The position numbers were made by a program, and so were the translations under genes. The notes beneath the pieces are model-generated. The model was not told where the DNA came from. It ran no database searches and saw nothing but the letters and a program-made list of their open reading frames with translations. Of a stretch of 64,000 bases of DNA, positions 3,487 to 33,452 are shown in pieces. The stretch is from the IMG/VR virus record IMGVR_UViG_3300009414_000001, positions 1-64,000 of that record. One strand, given 5' to 3'. The first letter of the stretch is position 1, and each line of letters starts with the position of its first letter. Origin of the DNA: a virus.

Positions 3487-3689
3487 TTCTTTTTAGACCT
3501 ATCAACAACCACAGTATTCAAATCAACAATTAACGGAAATTGACTCGCTAGCACTGAGTCAATAGGCTGATTCGGGATAGTTTTAATACATAAATTTTCT
3601 ATTATTGTTTGCCAACCAGCACCGCTAAATCTTTGCAATGTAGTCGTGACACCGAAAGGGCATATGCACTCTAGTCTTATTAGCTGCAC
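3483..3689 (-). CDS. Overlapping +1-frame ORF, candidate frameshift extension of PmgB (G/GT-type tail chaperone)
   Basis: Fills the gap between the pmgB stop and the tape-measure ATG; CCC TTT CGG at 3652-3660. Confidence 0.5.
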   Translation of the reverse strand: MQLIRLECICPFGVTTTLQRFSGAGWQTIIENLCIKTIPNQPIDSVLASQFPLIVDLNTVVVDRSKKK

Positions 3690-4422
3690 TTACCTCCTTA
3701 TCGTCATTTGTACAATCAAATGCAGGCGTGATAGCCGACATCTCACCCACACTGTTGACATTCATAGGAAGTCCAAAGGTGTTTCTTTTGTTATACTTTT
3801 GTGTTTCTTTTGAAATCCGTTCGAACTCCATTACTGTCATAGTTTCCTTTAATGACTCTAATCGCTCAATCAATTCAGGCACAGGCTTATTAACCATATC
3901 AATAGGAAGAAACTGCAATAAAACACGCATCACTTTGATCTCGGTCTTTTGTTTTTGCGTAGCTTCCTCATCAATGCAAAGTCGCATCTCTTCTAAGTGC
4001 TGCTCAGCCCATCCGAATAATGGTGTAATGCGATACTCTAGCTTTTCCCCCAGTGTAGATACTTCTGACTTTTCAATACTTCCAGTCGTTACTTGGTCGC
4101 CTAATAACTGCAAGTCAAAATCAACATGGTGCTTATCACCACAGCCGCACTTGTAAGTGATCAACGTTGAAGTATCTTCGGTTACATACAAGTAAATCCA
4201 AAAGATTGCCGCCTTTCTATCTTGAGCCGTCCAATACAATGATGACGTTTCTGGCTTAGCAGCGTCATAAGTCGTATTTAAGCGGTCTAAATAGCGTGTC
4301 GCTATCTCTTGCTCCATATCTGGCGATAAGTCTGCGAAATCGACGCACACTTGCACTGTAGGGACATCAAAGGTAATGCTTTTGCTTTTATCTGTTGGTA
4401 ATGTAAAGGCTGGGATAATCAT
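3625..4422 (-). CDS. pmgB: Baseplate hub / tail assembly chaperone-like protein (P1 PmgB)
   Basis: WTAQDR..A.FWI, YKCGCG..H, PLFGWA and the C-terminal PFR motif match P1 PmgB. Confidence 0.85.
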   Translation of the reverse strand: MIIPAFTLPTDKSKSITFDVPTVQVCVDFADLSPDMEQEIATRYLDRLNTTYDAAKPETSSLYWTAQDRKAAIFWIYLYVTEDTSTLITYKCGCGDKHHVDFDLQLLGDQVTTGSIEKSEVSTLGEKLEYRITPLFGWAEQHLEEMRLCIDEEATQKQKTEIKVMRVLLQFLPIDMVNKPVPELIERLESLKETMTVMEFERISKETQKYNKRNTFGLPMNVNSVGEMSAITPAFDCTNDDKEVSAANKTRVHMPFRCHDYIAKI

Positions 4423-9590: not shown

Positions 9591-11207
9591 TTAAGACGCT
9601 ATGTTTGTGATAGTGGTCTTAGCGAAGTAAGCAGATCCATTATCAGGATGAACTTGACCGTATTCGCTGCCCCACATGGTGTCTGAGTGAACCAAGTTGC
9701 CGCCAACATCATGCTTAAACGAGATTGGTGGGATTGCAGTACCAGCAACATAGCCAGAGTCGCCATGGTTACTACCTTTCGCGTACCACAAGATATCGTT
9801 AGTACCTAAATCATCTAATGGAACAGGCACTTCATAGATGCGGTATTTACCGAATAACATGCCAGTTAAATGCACTTGTGGAACACGCTTGTAATTAGGT
9901 ACTGGCTTAAAGAAATCAGAGCCTAACGCTTGAAGGAATGCACTAGCACCTAAACCAACATAAGCGCCGATAATTCCCGACTTTTTGTTAGCGTTAGTTA
10001 CTTCTGCATCAAGCGCAGTCATGAACTCGCCGAACTCTTCGTATTTTTCACGGAAGTAAGCGCCAGCAGGAACGTGTTTGTTGAACACACCAGTTCTAGT
10101 TGCAGCAAAAGCCATATCACGTAAGCGGCGTGTATCAGTTTCGTAAGCAATCAAGTTAGACATTGAATTGATTAACAGTGACTCAATGTCAATGTTATGC
10201 TCGCGGCGCATTTTATGCAGCGATTGGATGCTTGCTTGGCTATTGATGCTAACTTCATACGGCTTAACTTCTACAACAGACATCTTGTGGCTGACTGTAG
10301 GGATTAAGGAAGGGTTAGTTTCGATGTCTATTTCAAATTGGAAATGAAGCTCACCTGTGGTAATTGCCGCAGAGCTGTTTAGCACGACACTGCCGCCGCT
10401 ATGATCTACCGTACCAGATAAGGTTGTATTACCAATTTTTCCAAATAACACACCATCTTTTTCTTGTGCGACAGGAATGCGATCATGATAAATGACAACA
10501 CTGTCGGCTTTGATTTCATGCTTCTTAAGTGAAGGTAAATCAGTGGCGGTATCAAAAGTAAATTGCTGCTTAGCCGCTTGAGGCTGCTCACCAGCAGGAA
10601 AAGGGTATCGCTGGCGCTGCTGAGAAAACTGACCCATTGAGCCTTCGGCAATTATAGTGCCTTGTGTGTACTCACCACTTGTCGACGCTGCAATAGTGGT
10701 GATACGGAAGATTTCAGCAATATCTTTACCAGCTGGGATCAATGTCACCGCATGGTTAGTTGCACACTTCAAGTAAACGGGTAAAACCGTTGCAACAACG
10801 CGAGCACGCTCAAGCACACCATCAGAAGTCGATAAAGAGGTTTCAGCACTCGCAAGCATCAAGCCTGCTTGTGAGTTAGAAGGGGTTTTCATTAAACCCA
10901 TTAAGTTTTCAGCTGTCTTATGTGCGGCAGCTAAAAGCTCATTTGATGGTGCTTCACCGTTATTGTCCATTGCATAGTTTTCAAGTGCAGAACCCCACGC
11001 AGGCGCGATAACGTTTGCTTCGGCTTCCGATAAGCTACCGATACCAGCAGTACTTGCTAGCATTAACGCTACAGCACCATAACGCGCCTTTTTGTCAGCA
11101 ATTAAAGCGCCGCCTTCAAACTGAGGATTAACCACAGCATTTTTCATTTGTGTAGCACGGATAGCAATATCGCCCTCGCGTGCATGTAACTTCATCTTGT
11201 CATTCAT
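9591..11207 (-). CDS. Major capsid protein precursor (P1 gp23)
   Basis: 538 aa; AWGSAL..YA, LLAAAH.T.EN, S.SDGV and D.MWGS motifs as in P1 gp23. Confidence 0.9.
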   Translation of the reverse strand: MNDKMKLHAREGDIAIRATQMKNAVVNPQFEGGALIADKKARYGAVALMLASTAGIGSLSEAEANVIAPAWGSALENYAMDNNGEAPSNELLAAAHKTAENLMGLMKTPSNSQAGLMLASAETSLSTSDGVLERARVVATVLPVYLKCATNHAVTLIPAGKDIAEIFRITTIAASTSGEYTQGTIIAEGSMGQFSQQRQRYPFPAGEQPQAAKQQFTFDTATDLPSLKKHEIKADSVVIYHDRIPVAQEKDGVLFGKIGNTTLSGTVDHSGGSVVLNSSAAITTGELHFQFEIDIETNPSLIPTVSHKMSVVEVKPYEVSINSQASIQSLHKMRREHNIDIESLLINSMSNLIAYETDTRRLRDMAFAATRTGVFNKHVPAGAYFREKYEEFGEFMTALDAEVTNANKKSGIIGAYVGLGASAFLQALGSDFFKPVPNYKRVPQVHLTGMLFGKYRIYEVPVPLDDLGTNDILWYAKGSNHGDSGYVAGTAIPPISFKHDVGGNLVHSDTMWGSEYGQVHPDNGSAYFAKTTITNIAS

Positions 11208-11421
11208 TTTAGACGTTCCTGTTAATAATGTTAGTACATAAGTAAAGGCAAAAACGCCTTGACTTTTGTAGTCTAAAACGAGAGAAAAATATTACTGAGA
11301 AAAACCAACAACTAAAAAAAAGCAAAACTATGAATAAATTTTGCAATCAATCAAATCTTTCATATGAGTGCTTCAAATGTTATATTTGACTTAAATTAAA
11401 GCAAGGTAGTGAGATAAACAC

Positions 11422-11685
11422 ATGGAGCAAAAATTCGTAACACTAGGCGTATTTAAGGATTTAGTAGGATCTGGCGGTATTGGCGAGGTGGTAGCGCAAA
11501 AGAATGATAGTGAGAAGTACATGCTATTTGGTATATCAACCAATAAAGAAACAGTTTTTTTAGTGAAGACGTCGAGAGGAATTAACCACCTGAAAGAATG
11601 GGACGGCTTAGGCTATCTAGGTGACTTTATTGAAAGTACTGGGATATCTGAGTTTAAGGTAATAGGATTACTTAAGAAAGAGTGA
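11422..11685 (+). CDS. Small ParC-like plasmid accessory protein (tentative)
   Basis: 87 aa; the pattern TSRG....EW..L..LG.F.ES.GI.EF.V recalls small plasmid ParC-type proteins. Confidence 0.45.
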   Translation: MEQKFVTLGVFKDLVGSGGIGEVVAQKNDSEKYMLFGISTNKETVFLVKTSRGINHLKEWDGLGYLGDFIESTGISEFKVIGLLKKE

Positions 11686-11691
11686 CAAATA

Positions 11692-11739
11692 AAACACTCA
11701 AGAAACACAAATAACATTTAATTGTGTTTCTTGGGTGTT
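11692..11739. terminator. Long hairpin between convergent genes
   Basis: AACACTCAAGAAACACAA...TTGTGTTTCTTGGGTGTT. Confidence 0.65.
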
Positions 11740-11746
11740 AGGAATG

Positions 11747-12256
11747 TTATTTTGCAAATTTAGGCGTTAATGCCCTATCGCAGAACCACCACATTGCCGC
11801 AGTCGAAGCCGTATAGAATACCGTGTAAATCATATACCTAATAATCTCTCGCATTTCACCAGTAGAAAAGGCGTTATTAAGTGAATGCGCCTTATCTGAA
11901 AAAGCTGACATAATAGATAGAAACATCAAGGTAGCTACAAAAATCAATAAGGTCGTTAAGAATGGCCTAAACACCACTTTTATATTATTAGCCCATGGTG
12001 ATGTATTACTATTAGAGAGGCTTGCATCTGACTCAATGGAGTTGCTTAGCGCCTCGCCTTTGGCTATATCTGCCCTAGCACTAATATCTAGGCTTGCCAT
12101 CTCCTTATCATGCTTCCACTTGTCTTTTTCGTGGCTCTGGCGTAGCTTTTCTTGATAGTACTTACCTATCTGACCAAAAACCCCACCTATAGCGCCAGTG
12201 ATCACACCACCAACACCAGCTGTAGCACCGTTAAATAAACTGGTAAGCCATTCCAT
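11747..12256 (-). CDS. Holin-like membrane protein
   Basis: N-terminal Gly-rich hydrophobic stretch, RPFLT followed by TM helices, C-terminal WWF.DR; directly after the lysin. Confidence 0.6.
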   Translation of the reverse strand: MEWLTSLFNGATAGVGGVITGAIGGVFGQIGKYYQEKLRQSHEKDKWKHDKEMASLDISARADIAKGEALSNSIESDASLSNSNTSPWANNIKVVFRPFLTTLLIFVATLMFLSIMSAFSDKAHSLNNAFSTGEMREIIRYMIYTVFYTASTAAMWWFCDRALTPKFAK

Positions 12257-28041: not shown

Positions 28042-28075
28042 TCTAATTGCCATAACATAGGATATGGCAATTAGA
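28042..28075. repeat. Perfect 13-8-13 inverted repeat (loxP-like architecture)
   Basis: TCTAATTGCCATA-ACATAGGA-TATGGCAATTAGA. Confidence 0.85.
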
Positions 28076-28183: not shown

Positions 28184-28226
28184 GCTACTTGCTTCTTTTC
28201 GGAATATAACAAGTAGCGTTTATACT
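28184..28226 (+). promoter_or_regulatory. 34-bp palindrome overlapping a candidate sigma70 promoter for the peptide gene
   Basis: GCTACTTG-N18-CAAGTAGC (28184-28217); TTCGGA-N17-TATACT (28198-28226). Confidence 0.45.
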
Positions 28227-28314
28227 CGTCAATAAGCAGACGATCACCCAATGGATCGCTTCTTGCTTAGATAGCTTTAATTATTATTTTTACAACTAAA
28301 AACTAAGGGAAATT

Positions 28315-28725
28315 ATGTTAAATTATATATTCTTATCAATCATGTTGGCTTTTAACCCAGCAGCAGAATCAGCAACAAGCAATCTTGATCAAGGCACGCC
28401 ATCAGTTCAAGGTAGCAAAACAAAGCGTGTTGATTTTAATTTACTTGGCAGCAAAACAAAGCGTGTTGACTTCAACGTGCTCGGCAGTAAGTCAAAGCGA
28501 ATAGCTTACGGTAGTAAAAGCAAGCGCATCGCTTACGGTAGCAAATCAAAGCGTATTGATTTTAATCTGTTAGGTAGTAAGTCGAAGCGAATCGACTTTA
28601 ACTCATACGGCAGCAAGTCAAAACGAATTGACTTCAATATGCTTGGCAGCAAATCAAAACGCATCGACTTTAATATGCTTGGTAGTAAATCAAAACGCAT
28701 TAATGCTGATTCCGTCAAAATATAA
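28315..28725 (+). CDS. Multi-repeat peptide precursor (hydrophobic leader plus 9x GSK[S/T]KR units)
   Basis: AAGGGA RBS; 136 aa; repeats conserved as protein but diverged at synonymous positions; own terminator. Confidence 0.85.
   Translation: MLNYIFLSIMLAFNPAAESATSNLDQGTPSVQGSKTKRVDFNLLGSKTKRVDFNVLGSKSKRIAYGSKSKRIAYGSKSKRIDFNLLGSKSKRIDFNSYGSKSKRIDFNMLGSKSKRIDFNMLGSKSKRINADSVKI
28411..28698 (+). repeat. Degenerate 36/27-bp coding repeats
   Basis: Nine GGYAGYAAR-(ACA/TCA/AGC/TCG)-AARCGN starts. Confidence 0.9.
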
Positions 28726-28748
28726 ACACGACTAAATCAATAATATAG

Positions 28749-28775
28749 AAAGCGGCGATTTATTGCCGCTTTTTT
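28749..28775 (+). terminator. Rho-independent terminator after the peptide gene
   Basis: AAGCGGCGAT-TT-ATTGCCGCTTTTTT. Confidence 0.8.
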
Positions 28776-28831
28776 GTGTGTTGCGCAAAATTGTTGTAAA
28801 GTAGCTCCCAATGAGATGGAGCTAATTATCA

Positions 28832-29569
28832 ATGCTAAATTTAAGCAAACATTTAGAAGTTGAATTAAACACAGAAGGCGTTGATTACTTTGTTGGTGAC
28901 GTACATGGTCACTACGACGAATTAATGAACGAAATGAAGCGTGTGGGCTTCAAGGAAAGTACAGATCGCCTTTTCTTTCTTGGCGACTTATGCAATCGAG
29001 GCGATGATTCAATCAAATGCCTAGACTTGCTTACCGAAAAACATAAAACACTTACAGCTTACTCATTGGAAGGAAACCATGAGAATCTAATAAGTGAATT
29101 GCCCTACAACTCAAAAATCGAAGAACAATTAAAGCGAAGCAGCACAGGCGGTCAATGGGCAGTTGATTGTTATCACTTCGAACCCTCTGTATTTAGAAGG
29201 CTAACAGGTATCATAAAGGCTAAGTGCTTTAACGCTATAACTGTCAAGACATCACTCGGCAGTATTGGCTTAGTTCACGCTCAAGCACCTGATGACTGGG
29301 CTGTTTTCAGTCACAGTAAAATACCTAATGACGTACTGTTTAACGGCCTATGGAGTCACGAAAAATACTCTAAGCCTGCAAGCGAACTAAACCCCATCAA
29401 AAACATCGACCTCACTATTAGTGGACACACTAATTCAAGCGAAATTGTAGTCAAACAAAACATGATTTGGATTGACACTTTACGTAATGGCGGAAGGATA
29501 ACAATAATAAGCGCCGCAGAAGCTTTTGAGTTGATGAAAACTGAGAGAGCAAATGAACGAACAAGATAA
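28832..29569 (+). CDS. Ser/Thr protein phosphatase (PPP metallophosphoesterase; lambda NinI / PphA / P1 Ppp-like)
   Basis: GDVHG, GDLCNRG, GNHE, VHA, GHT, IDT motifs. Confidence 0.9.
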   Translation: MLNLSKHLEVELNTEGVDYFVGDVHGHYDELMNEMKRVGFKESTDRLFFLGDLCNRGDDSIKCLDLLTEKHKTLTAYSLEGNHENLISELPYNSKIEEQLKRSSTGGQWAVDCYHFEPSVFRRLTGIIKAKCFNAITVKTSLGSIGLVHAQAPDDWAVFSHSKIPNDVLFNGLWSHEKYSKPASELNPIKNIDLTISGHTNSSEIVVKQNMIWIDTLRNGGRITIISAAEAFELMKTERANERTR

Positions 29570-30194
29570 ACACAGGTTAACATTCCTTATCCCTCGCTGG
29601 AACGATGGCGACAGAACCGCCATCAATGAAGTAGCTAAAATAGTCGAGCCATGGGTTAGAGGTTTCGCTTCGCTTGCTATCGATAAAGAGCACGAAAGTG
29701 TAATGGTTGCCAGTAAAAAGATACCCACAATATTAGGCATGTGGGACGTTAACGAGCAAACACAAGAAGTAATGGTAAGGTTTGCTATTCATCAAAATTC
29801 AGTGACAAAATTAACCACTCCTTTAGCTCTTTACCAGCTATTGAGGTTTATGACCTACAGGATTTTAAAAAACAAAATTGAGGCTATAACAAAGCAGTCT
29901 GAGAATAGAGTCTCGGTCAGCGCAATGGATCCCGAAGAGCAAGATTTAATGGAAGGAGCGGCAAACAAGCAAAATGCCTCTGATATGGTTACGCTGCTAG
30001 AGCACCTTGAACATATCAATATAAAGCACCCTGACATGGCGATGGCTTACGCGATGCATCACATCGACGGTCATACCACCCAAGAAATATCTGACATAAC
30101 AGGGCAGACAGTAAGAAGTATTCAGCGTAATATAAAGCTAGTGAATACAGAGTTATACGCGCACTTAATGACTATAAAAACGGAAGCTTCGTAA
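29553..30194 (+). CDS. ECF-type RNA polymerase sigma factor, kinase-associated class (EcfK/EcfP-like)
   Basis: N-terminal LT.L..RW..GD..A..E....V; M..RIL in region 2; region-4 HTH G.TTQEISDITG..VRSIQR; TAATG coupling to the kinase. Confidence 0.8.
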   Translation: MNEQDKHRLTFLIPRWNDGDRTAINEVAKIVEPWVRGFASLAIDKEHESVMVASKKIPTILGMWDVNEQTQEVMVRFAIHQNSVTKLTTPLALYQLLRFMTYRILKNKIEAITKQSENRVSVSAMDPEEQDLMEGAANKQNASDMVTLLEHLEHINIKHPDMAMAYAMHHIDGHTTQEISDITGQTVRSIQRNIKLVNTELYAHLMTIKTEAS

Positions 30195-33100
30195 TGGATT
30201 TAGACGTTCTTGATATTGTAGAGAAAGCACTTTTAGTTGATGAACCAGCAGAGAGATTGAAACTAATCTCTGAGAGCTGCGGCAATAATCAAGAGCAAAT
30301 CGATTCAATAGTTTTCTTAATAGATGTTGTTAGCGAAGAAATAGAGCAACCAGAGCTTACCGCTGATGACGTCAAGGAAGCTTACGAAGTTCCAAGTGAC
30401 GAATTATCTGCCTTTGATATCCTAGCTATAGTCACAGAAGACGGAATCACCACCCAAGACCAAGAAAAGCTAGTTATAGAGCTTTGTGCTGGTGATGAAA
30501 GCAAAGTAAAGGAAGTTAATCGCCGTCTTGAAATGCTCTCTGATGATATCGATGAAGCGATCAACGAAAACATAATACAAGAAAGCTACAAGTCACTAAA
30601 AAACGGCGGCATCAACGACCCTAAAGCCCTCGAAGGCTTAATTGTTAACGACTATCGATTAGATTCCTTTATAGATAAAGGCTCTTACGGTTTTGTCTAT
30701 AAAGGCACGCGAATCGATGGCAAAATGAAAAAACAACAAGTTGCCATAAAAGTCATTAACCCGTCCATCAAAAACATTCTTCCCTTTGATTTAATTGACC
30801 GTGAAGCTGACATCATGGCGATGCTAAATCACAAATACATTGTTAATGTGTTGCATGTAGGTAGCGTTAATTACAATGGTATGTTTTTAGATTGCCATAT
30901 AACAGAGTTTGTTAATGGCTGTAATATATTCGAAGCCTTTCCTTTATCACTAGACAATCTGATAGCTAAAATTAAGTGTGTTGCTAGGGTAGCTAAAGCA
31001 TTAGAGCACTCGCATAAAAACAAGCTTATACACGCTGATATCAAGCCTGAAAACATCCTTGTTCGTTACTCTGAGAAGACTGAAAAAGAAAAGGAAATGT
31101 TTCTTAGGATCATGTGTGAGACTGATGTGGGCAATACTGGCCTAGTCTCTCATGATTTAGAACCTGTACTTTTAGATTTCAGCATATCGCCAACATCTAA
31201 CGCCCAAGGTACATCAAAAGCTGATGCGATAAAGTTTGCCAACAACTACAGATCACCTTACAGCTCTCCTGAATATCTACAAGGAGAGTCTTTATCTGCT
31301 CGCTCGGACGTTTATTCGCTCGGCGTATTACTGCATGCATTGATTATCAACAAAGAGCCATGCGAAAGAGGGCAGTTTGAAGAGTGGCCTAGCGACATAT
31401 TGCTAGGTAAAAAAGAATGGGATTACAACTGGTGTCTTGGTGACTTAGACGCCATCATCAAAAAAGCATGCGCTAAAAACCCTGATGACCGATACAACAA
31501 TGTTACTGAATTCAAAAATGACCTCTATAAGTTTATAGAGTTCAAGCCAGTTTCAGCGAAATCTGAGTCCTTGCCAGCGAAAGTATACAAGAAAACCCGA
31601 AGAAACCCTTTAATGATGACGGGCTTAGCCATGGGGTTTGTGTCGTTCCTATACGCTGCCTTTTACTCTATCGATGCAATAGAGCAGAATGCTCAATATC
31701 GTCATAACCTAGCGCTGTCGGAAGAATATTCCACTATGCTAAGCGAAGTACTCAAGCCTGTTGTTTCTCGAAAAGCTTTAAGTAAAGATTTTTTTGAAGA
31801 CAGCTTAAGTAGTTGGAACAAGTTTGATAACGCAACAACCGAAAAGCGCGTTTACTTCTTATCGTCATTAGCTGAGATGGCAACTAATGCACAGCATTTT
31901 GATATCGCGTCTGAAATGTACGAAAAGCTATTAAAGTCCTTTGAAGATGAATTAAACGAAAAGGACAGAATAAAGCACACATCAAAGTACATTGTCGCAT
32001 TAAACAAGAGTGGGCAGTCTGAAAAAAGTCAGCGAATAGCTGCGCCTATGTTCGATTCGATGGTTGGTCATAATTATGATGATCCCGTTATTGTCGGCGC
32101 TTTCTTGGAAATGTTTGACAGTGCCAGTCGATACATATACGAAAGCTACGAAGAAAGCGTGCCACTATTGGAAATACTTAGACAAATAGAGCAAAAGCCA
32201 CAGTTGTTTTTAGCGCCAGAGCATAGATCACTACTTCATTACCACACTGCAAAAGAGCGTTATTATTCTTTCTTTGGCGATTACGCCAGCACAAGTATCG
32301 GTCAGAGTGAAGACTTCTATCAGGAAGAAATGGTGCCAGTATATAAGGACACCAGAGTTGATATAGACAAAGCCCTCTACTTGCTTAAAGGAACTCGTCA
32401 AGAGGAAGAGTATAGGCATCAATATTTAAGCTTAAGCGCTAGAATTGAATACGAACTAAGAAACACTAAAGCCGCCAAAAAACTGAGCAATAGAGCTATT
32501 AGATACGCCAAGGAAAACTGGGGAGACAGCCCGATAACCCAGCGAGCTTATGTAATAGATTTCACGGTTAATCGCCACGTTGATTTAAATAAAATGCTTT
32601 CATCTGCGAGAAACGCCGATAGAATGCAAAGCCGCAGAGGTGTTAGTCGTGATGACTTGATCACATCGAGCTATTACCTTGCTGATGCATTACTGATGAG
32701 TGGAAAGCTAGATAAAGACAAGGCATTAATACTCAGTCTAATTAATAAATACACTCCTGAACAGCTTGATTATGAAGGCTTGGACTCAATGGAAGCGATG
32801 ATAATTGATTATCTTGGCACTACTGAGTTTGATAAAAGTGACGCTGACAATAAGATACTTGCAAGCTATGCGCTGGCGGCAGCTGAGCGCATGAAAACAA
32901 TTGAACCTAACGAATTCGAGCAAGAGAAGTATAATTTTGCTCGATTAATTAACCTGTATTTTAACGACGAGCTAAAAGGTAGTGATATTTTCAACTACTT
33001 TAATAAAACAAAGAAGTTTCCGTCAAACCTACAAGCAACCAAATACACCTACTTAGCCATTTTATCTATTGACCTTAAAGAGCATGAAGTAGCTAACAAC

Positions 33101-33340
33101 CTCGTAAGTTTTGCCAGACAGGCGATGGTATACACAGAATTTGAGCGCACAAACTCAGTCAACCTGATGAGCATGTTTGCCTCAATCACTAAAGTTTATA
33201 TCGCTATTGGCGACATTGACGCCGCAAGAAACACCTTCAACAACGCTGCAACAATCTACAGAACGCATGAAGACGCACTTTCTGGAAGTTATTTTGCAAA
33301 GCAACTCACTGAATTAAATGATAAATTAATATTTTCATAA
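30194..33340 (+). CDS. Membrane Hanks-type Ser/Thr kinase with a large TPR-like extracytoplasmic domain
   Basis: GSYGFVY, VAIK, HADIKPENIL, DFS, YSSPE, SDVYSLG, DL.AI..KA....P..RY; TM PLMMTGLAMGFVSFLYAAFYSI; about 550 aa helical C-terminus. Confidence 0.9.
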   Translation: MDLDVLDIVEKALLVDEPAERLKLISESCGNNQEQIDSIVFLIDVVSEEIEQPELTADDVKEAYEVPSDELSAFDILAIVTEDGITTQDQEKLVIELCAGDESKVKEVNRRLEMLSDDIDEAINENIIQESYKSLKNGGINDPKALEGLIVNDYRLDSFIDKGSYGFVYKGTRIDGKMKKQQVAIKVINPSIKNILPFDLIDREADIMAMLNHKYIVNVLHVGSVNYNGMFLDCHITEFVNGCNIFEAFPLSLDNLIAKIKCVARVAKALEHSHKNKLIHADIKPENILVRYSEKTEKEKEMFLRIMCETDVGNTGLVSHDLEPVLLDFSISPTSNAQGTSKADAIKFANNYRSPYSSPEYLQGESLSARSDVYSLGVLLHALIINKEPCERGQFEEWPSDILLGKKEWDYNWCLGDLDAIIKKACAKNPDDRYNNVTEFKNDLYKFIEFKPVSAKSESLPAKVYKKTRRNPLMMTGLAMGFVSFLYAAFYSIDAIEQNAQYRHNLALSEEYSTMLSEVLKPVVSRKALSKDFFEDSLSSWNKFDNATTEKRVYFLSSLAEMATNAQHFDIASEMYEKLLKSFEDELNEKDRIKHTSKYIVALNKSGQSEKSQRIAAPMFDSMVGHNYDDPVIVGAFLEMFDSASRYIYESYEESVPLLEILRQIEQKPQLFLAPEHRSLLHYHTAKERYYSFFGDYASTSIGQSEDFYQEEMVPVYKDTRVDIDKALYLLKGTRQEEEYRHQYLSLSARIEYELRNTKAAKKLSNRAIRYAKENWGDSPITQRAYVIDFTVNRHVDLNKMLSSARNADRMQSRRGVSRDDLITSSYYLADALLMSGKLDKDKALILSLINKYTPEQLDYEGLDSMEAMIIDYLGTTEFDKSDADNKILASYALAAAERMKTIEPNEFEQEKYNFARLINLYFNDELKGSDIFNYFNKTKKFPSNLQATKYTYLAILSIDLKEHEVANNLVSFARQAMVYTEFERTNSVNLMSMFASITKVYIAIGDIDAARNTFNNAATIYRTHEDALSGSYFAKQLTELNDKLIFS

Positions 33341-33400
33341 AATATTTTGTAACCTTTGTCGTTTTTTCCGTTTTCGATTGTACAGTGATTAAATTGTACG

Positions 33401-33452
33401 CTTTTACTATTATCAATCCCCCACGAAAATTAAGGGAAGATAATAGTAAAGG
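33401..33452. repeat. Long inverted repeat downstream of the kinase (candidate sRNA, attenuator or terminator)
   Basis: CTTTTACTATTATC...GATAATAGTAAAGG. Confidence 0.6.

Follow-up and report, generated by a model that had tools for sequence, protein, structure and literature searches.

We describe a small gene of tandem basic repeats from a marine phage and the conserved signalling module in which it sits. The gene occupies positions 28,315–28,725 (+ strand) of a 64,000-nt stretch of DNA, hereafter the window, which covers positions 1 to 64,000 of IMG/VR virus record IMGVR_UViG_3300009414_000001, a complete virus of 89.8 kb with direct terminal repeats from a marine metagenome assembly. The gene is maintained by selection on its protein, which we assign to a previously unnamed family of small repeat proteins, and wherever the gene neighbourhood could be seen it stands at the head of the same series: a Ser/Thr phosphatase, an extracytoplasmic function (ECF) sigma factor and a receptor Ser/Thr kinase. 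The explanation that we prefer, with a probability of about 0.4, is that the small protein would be exported and would act on the sensor of this kinase, as a multivalent ligand or as a connector, with its production placed under the control of the host's sigma-54. Coordinates below are those of the window, and features lie on the + strand, unless another locus is named.

The repeat gene and its family

The open reading frame (ORF) encodes 136 amino acids: a 20-residue hydrophobic leader (MLNYIFLSIMLAFNPAAESA, residues 1–20; 28,315–28,374), a 12-residue spacer (TSNLDQGTPSVQ, residues 21–32; 28,375–28,410) and nine tandem basic units with the core GSK[ST]KR[VI][DA][FY] (28,411–28,725). The leader begins with ML, contains no basic residue and carries a hydrophobic core of 10 residues followed by an acidic residue, E18, that is conserved in the family. 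The spacer likewise has no basic residue, and from E18 to the first basic residue the net charge is −2. The units, seven of them 12-mers or longer and two 9-mers, read in order GSKTKR-VDFNLL, -VDFNVL, GSKSKR-IAY (twice), -IDFNLL, -IDFNSY, -IDFNML (twice) and -INADSVKI, exactly as a preliminary description of this DNA had listed them; the last unit runs up to the stop codon and ends in ..SVKI.

The gene is real and under protein-level selection. The repeat has periods of 36 and 27 nt with a DNA identity of only 74–82% (Tandem Repeats Finder), and at the fourth position of the units Ser is encoded by TCA, TCG or AGC and Thr by ACA. Over the first 18 nt shared by all nine units, pairwise differences fall 18, 8 and 118 times at codon positions 1, 2 and 3, respectively (118 of 144 at the third position). 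Among the six 36-nt units, the ORF frame yields 80 synonymous and 34 non-synonymous codon differences, and the other five frames yield 11/91, 0/102, 7/107, 60/42 and 8/94; the 60/42 frame is the antisense frame that shares third positions with the ORF, and the remaining four are far worse than the ORF frame. Because the variation is concentrated at third positions of a single frame, the repeat is old and is maintained as protein sequence, being neither the product of recent slippage nor a non-coding iteron array. The earlier proposal of an old, selected repeat, based on synonymous differences between copies and the mixed Ser codons, thus holds.

A fast-evolving repeat protein can escape sequence searches, and this family was reached only through synteny and then a profile. 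Queried with the single repeat protein, a word-indexed search returned no homologue, phmmer against 1.84 billion representatives gave only chance matches of repeat on repeat (for example, an animal neuropeptide-like precursor), a scan of IMG/VR gave no match, and no family in Pfam, PHROGs or NCBIfam rose above the noise below threshold (GH16, phrog_25542 without a passing stretch, and chorismate mutase). The ESM Atlas held no usable neighbour, and the Atlas model of the protein has no detectable fold (predicted local distance difference test, pLDDT, 0.47). The DNA of the module matched nothing in phage and plasmid collections by blastn; by tblastn, the window kinase matched only the kinase domains of unrelated phages and the window sigma factor had no match. 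The kinase protein led further. A search of 5.8 billion clustered proteins gave one full-length relative (P0002, around 30% identity); an alignment of these two kinases gave full-length relatives in two metagenome contigs (L003 and L004) and two Alteromonadaceae metagenome-assembled genomes (L009 and L010); and a wider kinase alignment gave L012, in a 57.6-kb virus record that also occurs as a contig in a genome labelled Endozoicomonas sp. G2_1. With a profile of the six small proteins from these loci and the window, seven further distinct members were found among the 5.8 billion clustered proteins, and a scan of IMG/VR with the small-protein alignment returned only a record already known. Gene order and the profile search together bring the family of the repeat gene, unnamed until now, to at least 12 small proteins.

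Twelve members were surveyed for architecture. All start with ML, none has a Lys or Arg before residue 26–40, and an acidic residue stands at position 17–18 in 11 of them (position 14 in P0146). The hydrophobic core spans 8–10 residues, with a maximum 10-residue Kyte–Doolittle mean of 1.9–2.4, and the stretch from this segment to the first basic residue is net-negative in every member (−1 to −4). There follow 2–9 copies of a core (nine in the window, 2–5 in the eleven relatives) with the consensus G-x3-G-K-[VI]-[RK]-[IV] and an optional 5-residue spacer [DEN]-[YH]-[KEQ]-x-x, and the C terminus of the protein coincides with the last core residue. The small ORF of L003, for instance, reads MLSTLLAAVLSLTPATVDATPVVDNNTVTSQEV and then GSSRGKVRI-DYKEI three times; L004 has three copies of GAKRGKVRV-NHERV, L009 four to five of GSHSGKIRI, and L012 three of GKKGKIRI with spacers of 13 and 1 residues, while L010 retains a decayed version. 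The 12-mer of the window, GSKSKR-I-D-F-NLL, aligns with the 14-mer of the relatives, GSSRGKVR-I-D-Y-KEI, and by this alignment the window protein is a divergent member of the family and its most expanded one. Inside each relative's gene the cores are identical as protein and differ synonymously as DNA (Arg in L003 and L012, for example, is AGA in one copy and CGC in another), which indicates that selection on the core acts independently in each lineage.

With conserved cores, spacers that vary in both sequence and length, and an end at the last core, the proteins are laid out like a multi-copy precursor or a multivalent ligand. The preliminary description had read the window gene as a prohormone-like multicore precursor, with dibasic KR spacing as in such precursors. 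The multi-core layout stands; the KR site is not shared by the family, as the repeat part of 5 of the 12 members contains no dibasic pair at all. The same description was right that no modifying enzyme adjoins the gene, and no linked protease or exporter was found either: phosphatase, sigma factor and kinase make up the whole of the conserved neighbourhood.

A conserved module with an external sensor

The synteny count rests on the six loci seen in context, namely the window, L003/L011, L004, L009, L010 and L012; P0002 and the seven members found by profile stand outside it. In all six, the order is small ORF, phosphatase, ECF sigma factor and kinase, and all six loci are phage or phage-like. 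The relatives' kinases are only 26–32% identical to that of the window, and the retention of the four-gene order despite this divergence ties the small gene functionally to the kinase, phosphatase and sigma factor. Distant sigma–kinase pairs in 400 sampled Gammaproteobacteria had neither the phosphatase nor the small ORF, and a profile of the sensor domain, run on two order-level samples that overlap and contain 401 genomes apiece, found only the two genomes already known. One locus is degenerate: in L010 (4,516–4,779 and 5,579–6,002) the sigma gene is split into pieces of 62 and 69 residues, the repeats have decayed and the start region of the small ORF carries a 30-bp duplication. The parts thus appear to decay together, consistent with mutual dependence.

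The kinase (30,194–33,340; 1,048 residues) combines a Hanks-type kinase domain (PF00069), a single transmembrane segment (residues 473–491; 31,610–31,666) and a 557-residue external superhelix of tetratricopeptide repeat (TPR) type. The basic flank N-terminal to the membrane segment places the kinase domain in the cytoplasm and the C-terminal 540–566 residues of these proteins outside. An AlphaFold2 model of the sensor from a six-sequence alignment is all-alpha, with around 26 helices (pLDDT 82, predicted template modelling score 0.77), and its best PDB matches by Foldseek are TPR superhelices: TTC7B, TPR subunits of APC/C (APC3), OGT, Tom70/71 and SRP72. These matched superhelices bind extended peptides or tails. 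The sensor is net acidic in four of six loci, and in every pair it diverges faster than the cytoplasmic half, as expected of a sensor that determines specificity. The window kinase additionally has around 80 extra N-terminal residues and an insert of around 28 residues that separates the catalytic loop from the DFS motif; none of the relatives has either feature.

Between the small gene and the kinase lie the phosphatase and the sigma factor. The phosphatase (28,832–29,569) is NinI-like and calcineurin-like (PF00149, 6e-14; phrog_246, 4.5e-42) and 39–46% identical to those of the relatives. The sigma factor (29,553–30,194) matches PF07638, with a TIGR02999 score below the cut-off, and no anti-sigma gene lies beside it at the loci in context. 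Its region 2.2 (window, DVNEQTQEV; relatives, V-N/S-D-I-A-Q-T-V) is partly acidic and not of the QTTA type. An alignment of five sigma factors (A6) reveals an invariant Thr around 10 residues before region 2.2 (T59 in the window, within K-x-x-x-T-[PI]-[LI]), a candidate phospho-acceptor distinct from the QTTA Thr of group ECF43.

The module recurs in more than one genomic setting. In L003 it lies between telN (protelomerase, PF16684) and a convergent gene of 1,294 residues that we read as repA, beside a cI-like repressor, and in L004 and L009 a similar telN-like gene lies just upstream of the module, which would place three of the six loci in the telN–repA region of linear plasmid prophages. 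The window has P1-type ref, terminase, parA and rep genes instead, and L012, an integrase-bearing element, is also without the telN–repA setting. The integrase gene of L012 is downstream of the module (10,529–11,752), and 5′ of the module L012 carries a toxin–antitoxin pair judged by eye to be AbrB/MazE-like and MazF/PemK-like (3,497–4,094).

On the other side of the module, 3′ of the kinase, four relatives share a conserved ORF of around 89 residues without a family match (L003 7,377–7,751; L004 8,396–8,665; L009 8,944–9,213; L010 8,995–9,264). Ahead of it stands a conserved block, GTGA[CG]AGTAAA(C)-N12-CGT...CTATTAT, and the two may be the target promoter of the sigma factor and its output gene. 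The window has TGTAACC..CGTTTT and ACTATTAT at around 33,350–33,410 but lacks the ORF.

Expression, proposed export and possible function of the small protein

The small gene carries signals of its own on both sides. At 28,252–28,267, 63 nt 5′ of the ATG, lies a sigma-54-type −24/−12 element, TGGATCGCTTCTTGCT, with GG at −24 and TTGC at −12 (consensus used for comparison, TGGCAC-N5-TTGCW). The motif GG-N8-TTGCT is invariant in all six loci, 60–63 nt before the start codon, with the stricter TGG form in five and AGG in L012. The motif is rare, with only 6 TGG-N8-TTGCW sites over both strands in the 64 kb of the window, against around 9 sites of a looser form expected by chance; the argument for sigma-54 rests on the conserved position and not on the number of sites. 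No sigma-54 activator (PF00158) is encoded in the three complete phage records, and host-like genomes show 16–24 activator-domain matches plus rpoN. A conserved sigma-54 promoter on a phage gene whose phage has no activator would imply that a host enhancer-binding protein has been captured.

Translation would start from a Shine–Dalgarno sequence, AAGGGA (28,305–28,310), 4 nt 5′ of the ATG in an unstructured 5′ untranslated region (UTR; 28,277–28,320 folds at 0 kcal/mol). At the other end, a strong intrinsic terminator is found at 28,747–28,774 (RNA fold −19.1 kcal/mol, z −2.9); the hairpin AGCGGCGATTTATTGCCGCT and its T run together are annotated as 28,747–28,780. The hairpin, AGCGGC..ATTGCCGCT, follows the small ORF in all six loci, although L009 and L010 deviate from it by one or two bases and L012 has lost the T run, and is conserved though the proteins have diverged to 20–46% identity. 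The Shine–Dalgarno sequence, the ATG-TTA start, the leader and the terminator are conserved across loci whose repeat DNA is unrelated. With its own promoter and its own terminator, the small gene forms a separately controlled and separately terminated unit ahead of the operon.

Several further elements surround this unit. A palindrome, CTACTTG-N18-CAAGTAG (28,184–28,217, no strand assigned; related copies D4 and I5), lies 35–68 nt 5′ of the −24 element and may serve a regulator or act as an enhancer, with no conserved counterpart in the relatives; further out, around 240 nt 5′ of the ORF, is a perfect 13-bp inverted repeat with an 8-bp spacer (28,042–28,075). The DNA upstream of the gene in the window is little like that of the relatives, save for a short T-rich stretch before the Shine–Dalgarno sequence that resembles L012. 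Between the −12 element and the Shine–Dalgarno sequence, the relatives carry a near-palindrome, TATAAGTGTTCAA-N7-TTGACACTTATA (L003 2,842–2,875, with equivalents in L004, L009, L010 and L012), of which the window retains only TTTTTACAAC. As the near-palindrome is not stable as RNA, it may instead be an operator at which a protein covers the transcription start. Right after the terminator (28,775–28,831), all loci but L012 show TG-TAnnnT (TGTAAAGT in the window; TGTACTAT, TGTAATAT and TGTATATT in relatives), perhaps a weak extended −10 promoter for the phosphatase–sigma–kinase operon. Four other readings were discarded: a 5′ UTR hairpin in the relatives, which has no significant RNA stability; a sigma-70 promoter, TTGCTT-N16-TATTTT, weak and unconserved in the relatives; an ECF −35/−10 promoter in the conserved block, for which the spacing is wrong; and a P1 C1 operator at ATTGCTCTA in the relatives, which is absent from the window.

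The hydrophobic segment of the leader, with 8–10 residues, is too short to span the membrane. The length of the hydrophobic core and the net-negative early mature region fit the Sec-type pattern, and small residues at −3 and −1 offer possible cleavage sites in four loci (VDA|T in L003, VEA|V in L004, VNA|E in L012 and AES|A in the window). By the charge-difference rule, a neutral N-flank and an acidic C-flank (−1 to −4) would put the C-terminal part outside. The acidic spacer and this charge difference across the hydrophobic segment favour export, and such a spacer may be what a very basic passenger would need to begin translocation. Two other structural readings, a type IV pilin-like leader (no G|F..E5) and a hexapeptide beta-helix (wrong periodicity), were rejected.

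The simplest model to unite all the conserved features is the following sequence of events for an exported ligand. A host sigma-54 activator would turn on the small gene at the −24/−12 element, and the terminator would keep it a separate unit of high output. The uncharged hydrophobic leader and acidic spacer would start export of the basic repeats to the periplasm, where the 2–9 identical cores, as one multivalent chain or after trimming, could bind the acidic TPR superhelix and so cluster or activate the kinase. The kinase would then phosphorylate the ECF sigma factor, a protein without an anti-sigma partner, with the NinI-like phosphatase resetting it, and the sigma factor would drive phage genes, probably ones bearing on the decision between lysis and lysogeny.

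A number of observations weigh against this explanation. On the side of export, the n-region of the leader lacks a positive charge in all 12 members, as a Sec signal peptide would not, and L009 and L010 offer only cleavage sites with Pro at −3 or +1, leaving no consistent signal-peptidase site; the doubt about the leader raised by the preliminary description, which had noted its missing basic n-region, is thus real, the more so as no AXA site is found consistently. On the side of binding, the sensors of L009 and L010 are not acidic (net charge 0 and −2) although their small proteins are still basic, and the number of cores (2–9) bears no relation to sensor length. On the side of control, the sigma-54 reading depends on a motif of 7 bases and on where it stands, an enhancer further upstream was not found conserved across the six loci, and the homology between L003 and L004 starts only around 15 nt upstream of the GG. 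Finally, the conserved gene order speaks for a functional link but not for its direction: from synteny, the small protein could equally be an output of the module or an accessory to it.

A further step would make the protein a diffusible signal, a sub-case that needs both processing and release. Host proteases of the periplasm or outer membrane would cut the precursor into cationic peptides of 9–14 residues, which would escape from the cell, build up outside and be sensed by the TPR kinase of other lysogens, in a Gram-negative analogue of arbitrium or Rap-Phr that reports the density of kin. We regard this as possible but unlikely. The conserved cores between variable spacers (from 0–1 residues to the 13 of L012) and the invariable end at a core are what multi-copy precursors look like; tandem pheromone copies are documented in the propeptides of phage Rap-Phr systems (PMC11343458); a leaky-terminator layout would give the precursor in excess over the receptor operon; and a receptor facing outwards makes peptide import unnecessary. 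Weighing on the other side, the cores share no cleavage motif, dibasic or otherwise, the module comes with no protease or exporter, and a producer gated by sigma-54 is unlike the constitutive density reporter of quorum signals. Basic peptides of around 1 kDa also pass the outer membrane poorly.

Rather unlikely, in our judgement, is that the small protein is an output or accessory effector, either a membrane-active cationic amphipathic peptide (for lysis timing, exclusion or envelope remodelling) or an antirepressor resembling those encoded by known small ORFs (smORFs). The telN–repA locus is where pairs of a transcription factor (TF) and a smORF control induction (PMC10432266), the protein is small and has no detectable fold (Atlas model as above), and the alternating basic and hydrophobic residues of the core K-V-R-I would suit binding to a membrane surface. 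Yet a −24/−12-type promoter cannot be used by an ECF sigma factor, so the small gene is not the direct target of the sigma factor of its module; known smORF antirepressors are cytoplasmic, whereas this family has a leader and an acidic spacer of export type; and the separate ORF of 89 residues after the kinase in four relatives is a better candidate for the output.

That the protein stays in the cytoplasm and serves the kinase–phosphatase pair as a multisite substrate or a decoy, as the preliminary description had offered among its alternatives, or as a scaffold, seems highly improbable. The repeats of the window do present 20 Ser or Thr residues adjacent to basic ones and are co-encoded with both enzymes, but Ser and Thr are few or missing in the cores of L004 (GAKRGKVRV), L012 (GKKGKIRI) and P0149 or P0151, which weakens the idea; it would also leave the conserved hydrophobic leader and acidic spacer without a role, and in pairs of this kind the established type of substrate is the sigma factor (PMC8999054, PMC13147305). 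Lastly, a non-functional array of iterons or binding sites open by chance in one frame, for which one could cite an antisense frame of 61 residues that is also open and plasmid-type replication genes on the element (Rep and ParA matches), is hardly credible, being already contradicted by the third-position variation in one frame, by start signals, leader and terminator kept where the repeat DNA is unrelated, and by a protein architecture kept in twelve members.

Comparison with known systems

Our search of the literature found no description of such a module, but its parts recall several known systems. Closest in layout to the idea of a signal are Rap-Phr and the arbitrium pair AimP/AimR: in these, too, a phage-borne, small, exported multi-core precursor lies beside a receptor of TPR fold that feeds a decision of phage or host, and phage Rap-Phr systems with tandemly duplicated pheromone propeptides are known from Bacillus phages phi3T and phi105 (PMC11343458). 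Their receptors, however, are cytoplasmic one-component TPR proteins of Bacillota, for which the peptide must be re-imported, and the present kinase falls outside the RRNPP(A) definition. Here the TPR superhelix is external, on a membrane Ser/Thr kinase, in Gammaproteobacteria, with an ECF sigma factor and a phosphatase as output; the sequences are not similar, the small protein has no homologues beyond its own new family, its cores lack a conserved cleavage site, and processing is putative.

The sigma factor and kinase resemble ECF43-type pairs, such as EcfP-PknT of Vibrio parahaemolyticus and EcfK-PknS of Xanthomonas citri (PMC8999054, PMC13147305), in which an ECF sigma factor free of an anti-sigma factor adjoins a single-pass kinase with a periplasmic TPR domain. 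The signal read by this domain in kinases of the EcfP-PknT and EcfK-PknS type is stated to be unknown (PMC8999054, PMC13147305). The module described here differs in being phage-borne and in adding a NinI-like phosphatase and a small repeat gene, and its sigma factor scores below the TIGR02999 cut-off, with a region 2.2 that is not of the QTTA type and with the invariant Thr59.

A third likeness is to the TF–smORF modules of plasmid-like phages. The telN–repA locus of linear plasmid phages houses variable sensory modules, which set off lysis without the need for DNA damage (Silpe et al., PMC10432266), and the L003 module lies in exactly this locus, beside cI, and likewise pairs a regulator with a small orphan protein. 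Those modules, however, are regulated by a one-component transcription factor, and the present one by a cascade of kinase, sigma factor and phosphatase. Tandem repeats and a leader of export type also set the small protein apart, as does a promoter that looks dependent on sigma-54 rather than on the regulator of the module. The window element is, moreover, a different phage with P1-type genes.

Precursors of yeast alpha-factor and of invertebrate neuropeptides share with the family the order of leader, spacer and tandem cores and the end at the last core, and the phmmer match to an animal-type precursor with GKR spacing, P0126, reflects convergent architecture. Unlike in these eukaryotic prohormones, the dibasic site is unconserved here, there is no context of a Kex2- or furin-type protease, and there is no homology. 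Connectors provide a further parallel. In MgrB-PhoQ, SafA-PhoQ, MzrA-EnvZ and CpxP-CpxA, small envelope proteins of one pathway act on the periplasmic domain of another pathway's sensor kinase; these connectors act on histidine kinases and are non-repetitive and host-encoded, and the likeness of the repeat protein to them is one of analogy only.

The most far-reaching version of these parallels is that the repeat gene could be the signal gene of a peptide-sensing system in phages of Gram-negative marine bacteria, with the products of a sigma-54-gated, multi-copy cationic precursor read outside the cytoplasm by a TPR kinase that sets lysis against lysogeny through an ECF sigma factor, the phosphatase acting as reset. 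We hold this to be doubtful; were it so, an arbitrium-like system would be known outside Bacillota for the first time, and the sensor of an ECF43-type kinase would have its first natural ligand. Short of that, the locus offers a co-inherited candidate ligand for the periplasmic TPR domains of sigma-phosphorylating kinases of the PknT/PknS type. It bears on whether temperate phages that infect Gram-negative bacteria rely on peptides or proteins as ligands, beyond host autoinducers or DNA damage, to choose between lysis and lysogeny, and on how a phage plugs into the regulation of its host. Endozoicomonas sp. G2_1, with the L012 prophage, may serve as an experimental system if it is a cultured isolate. 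Although a member of none of these groups, the locus shares its working logic with Rap-Phr, the ECF43-type pairs, the TF–smORF modules and the connectors.

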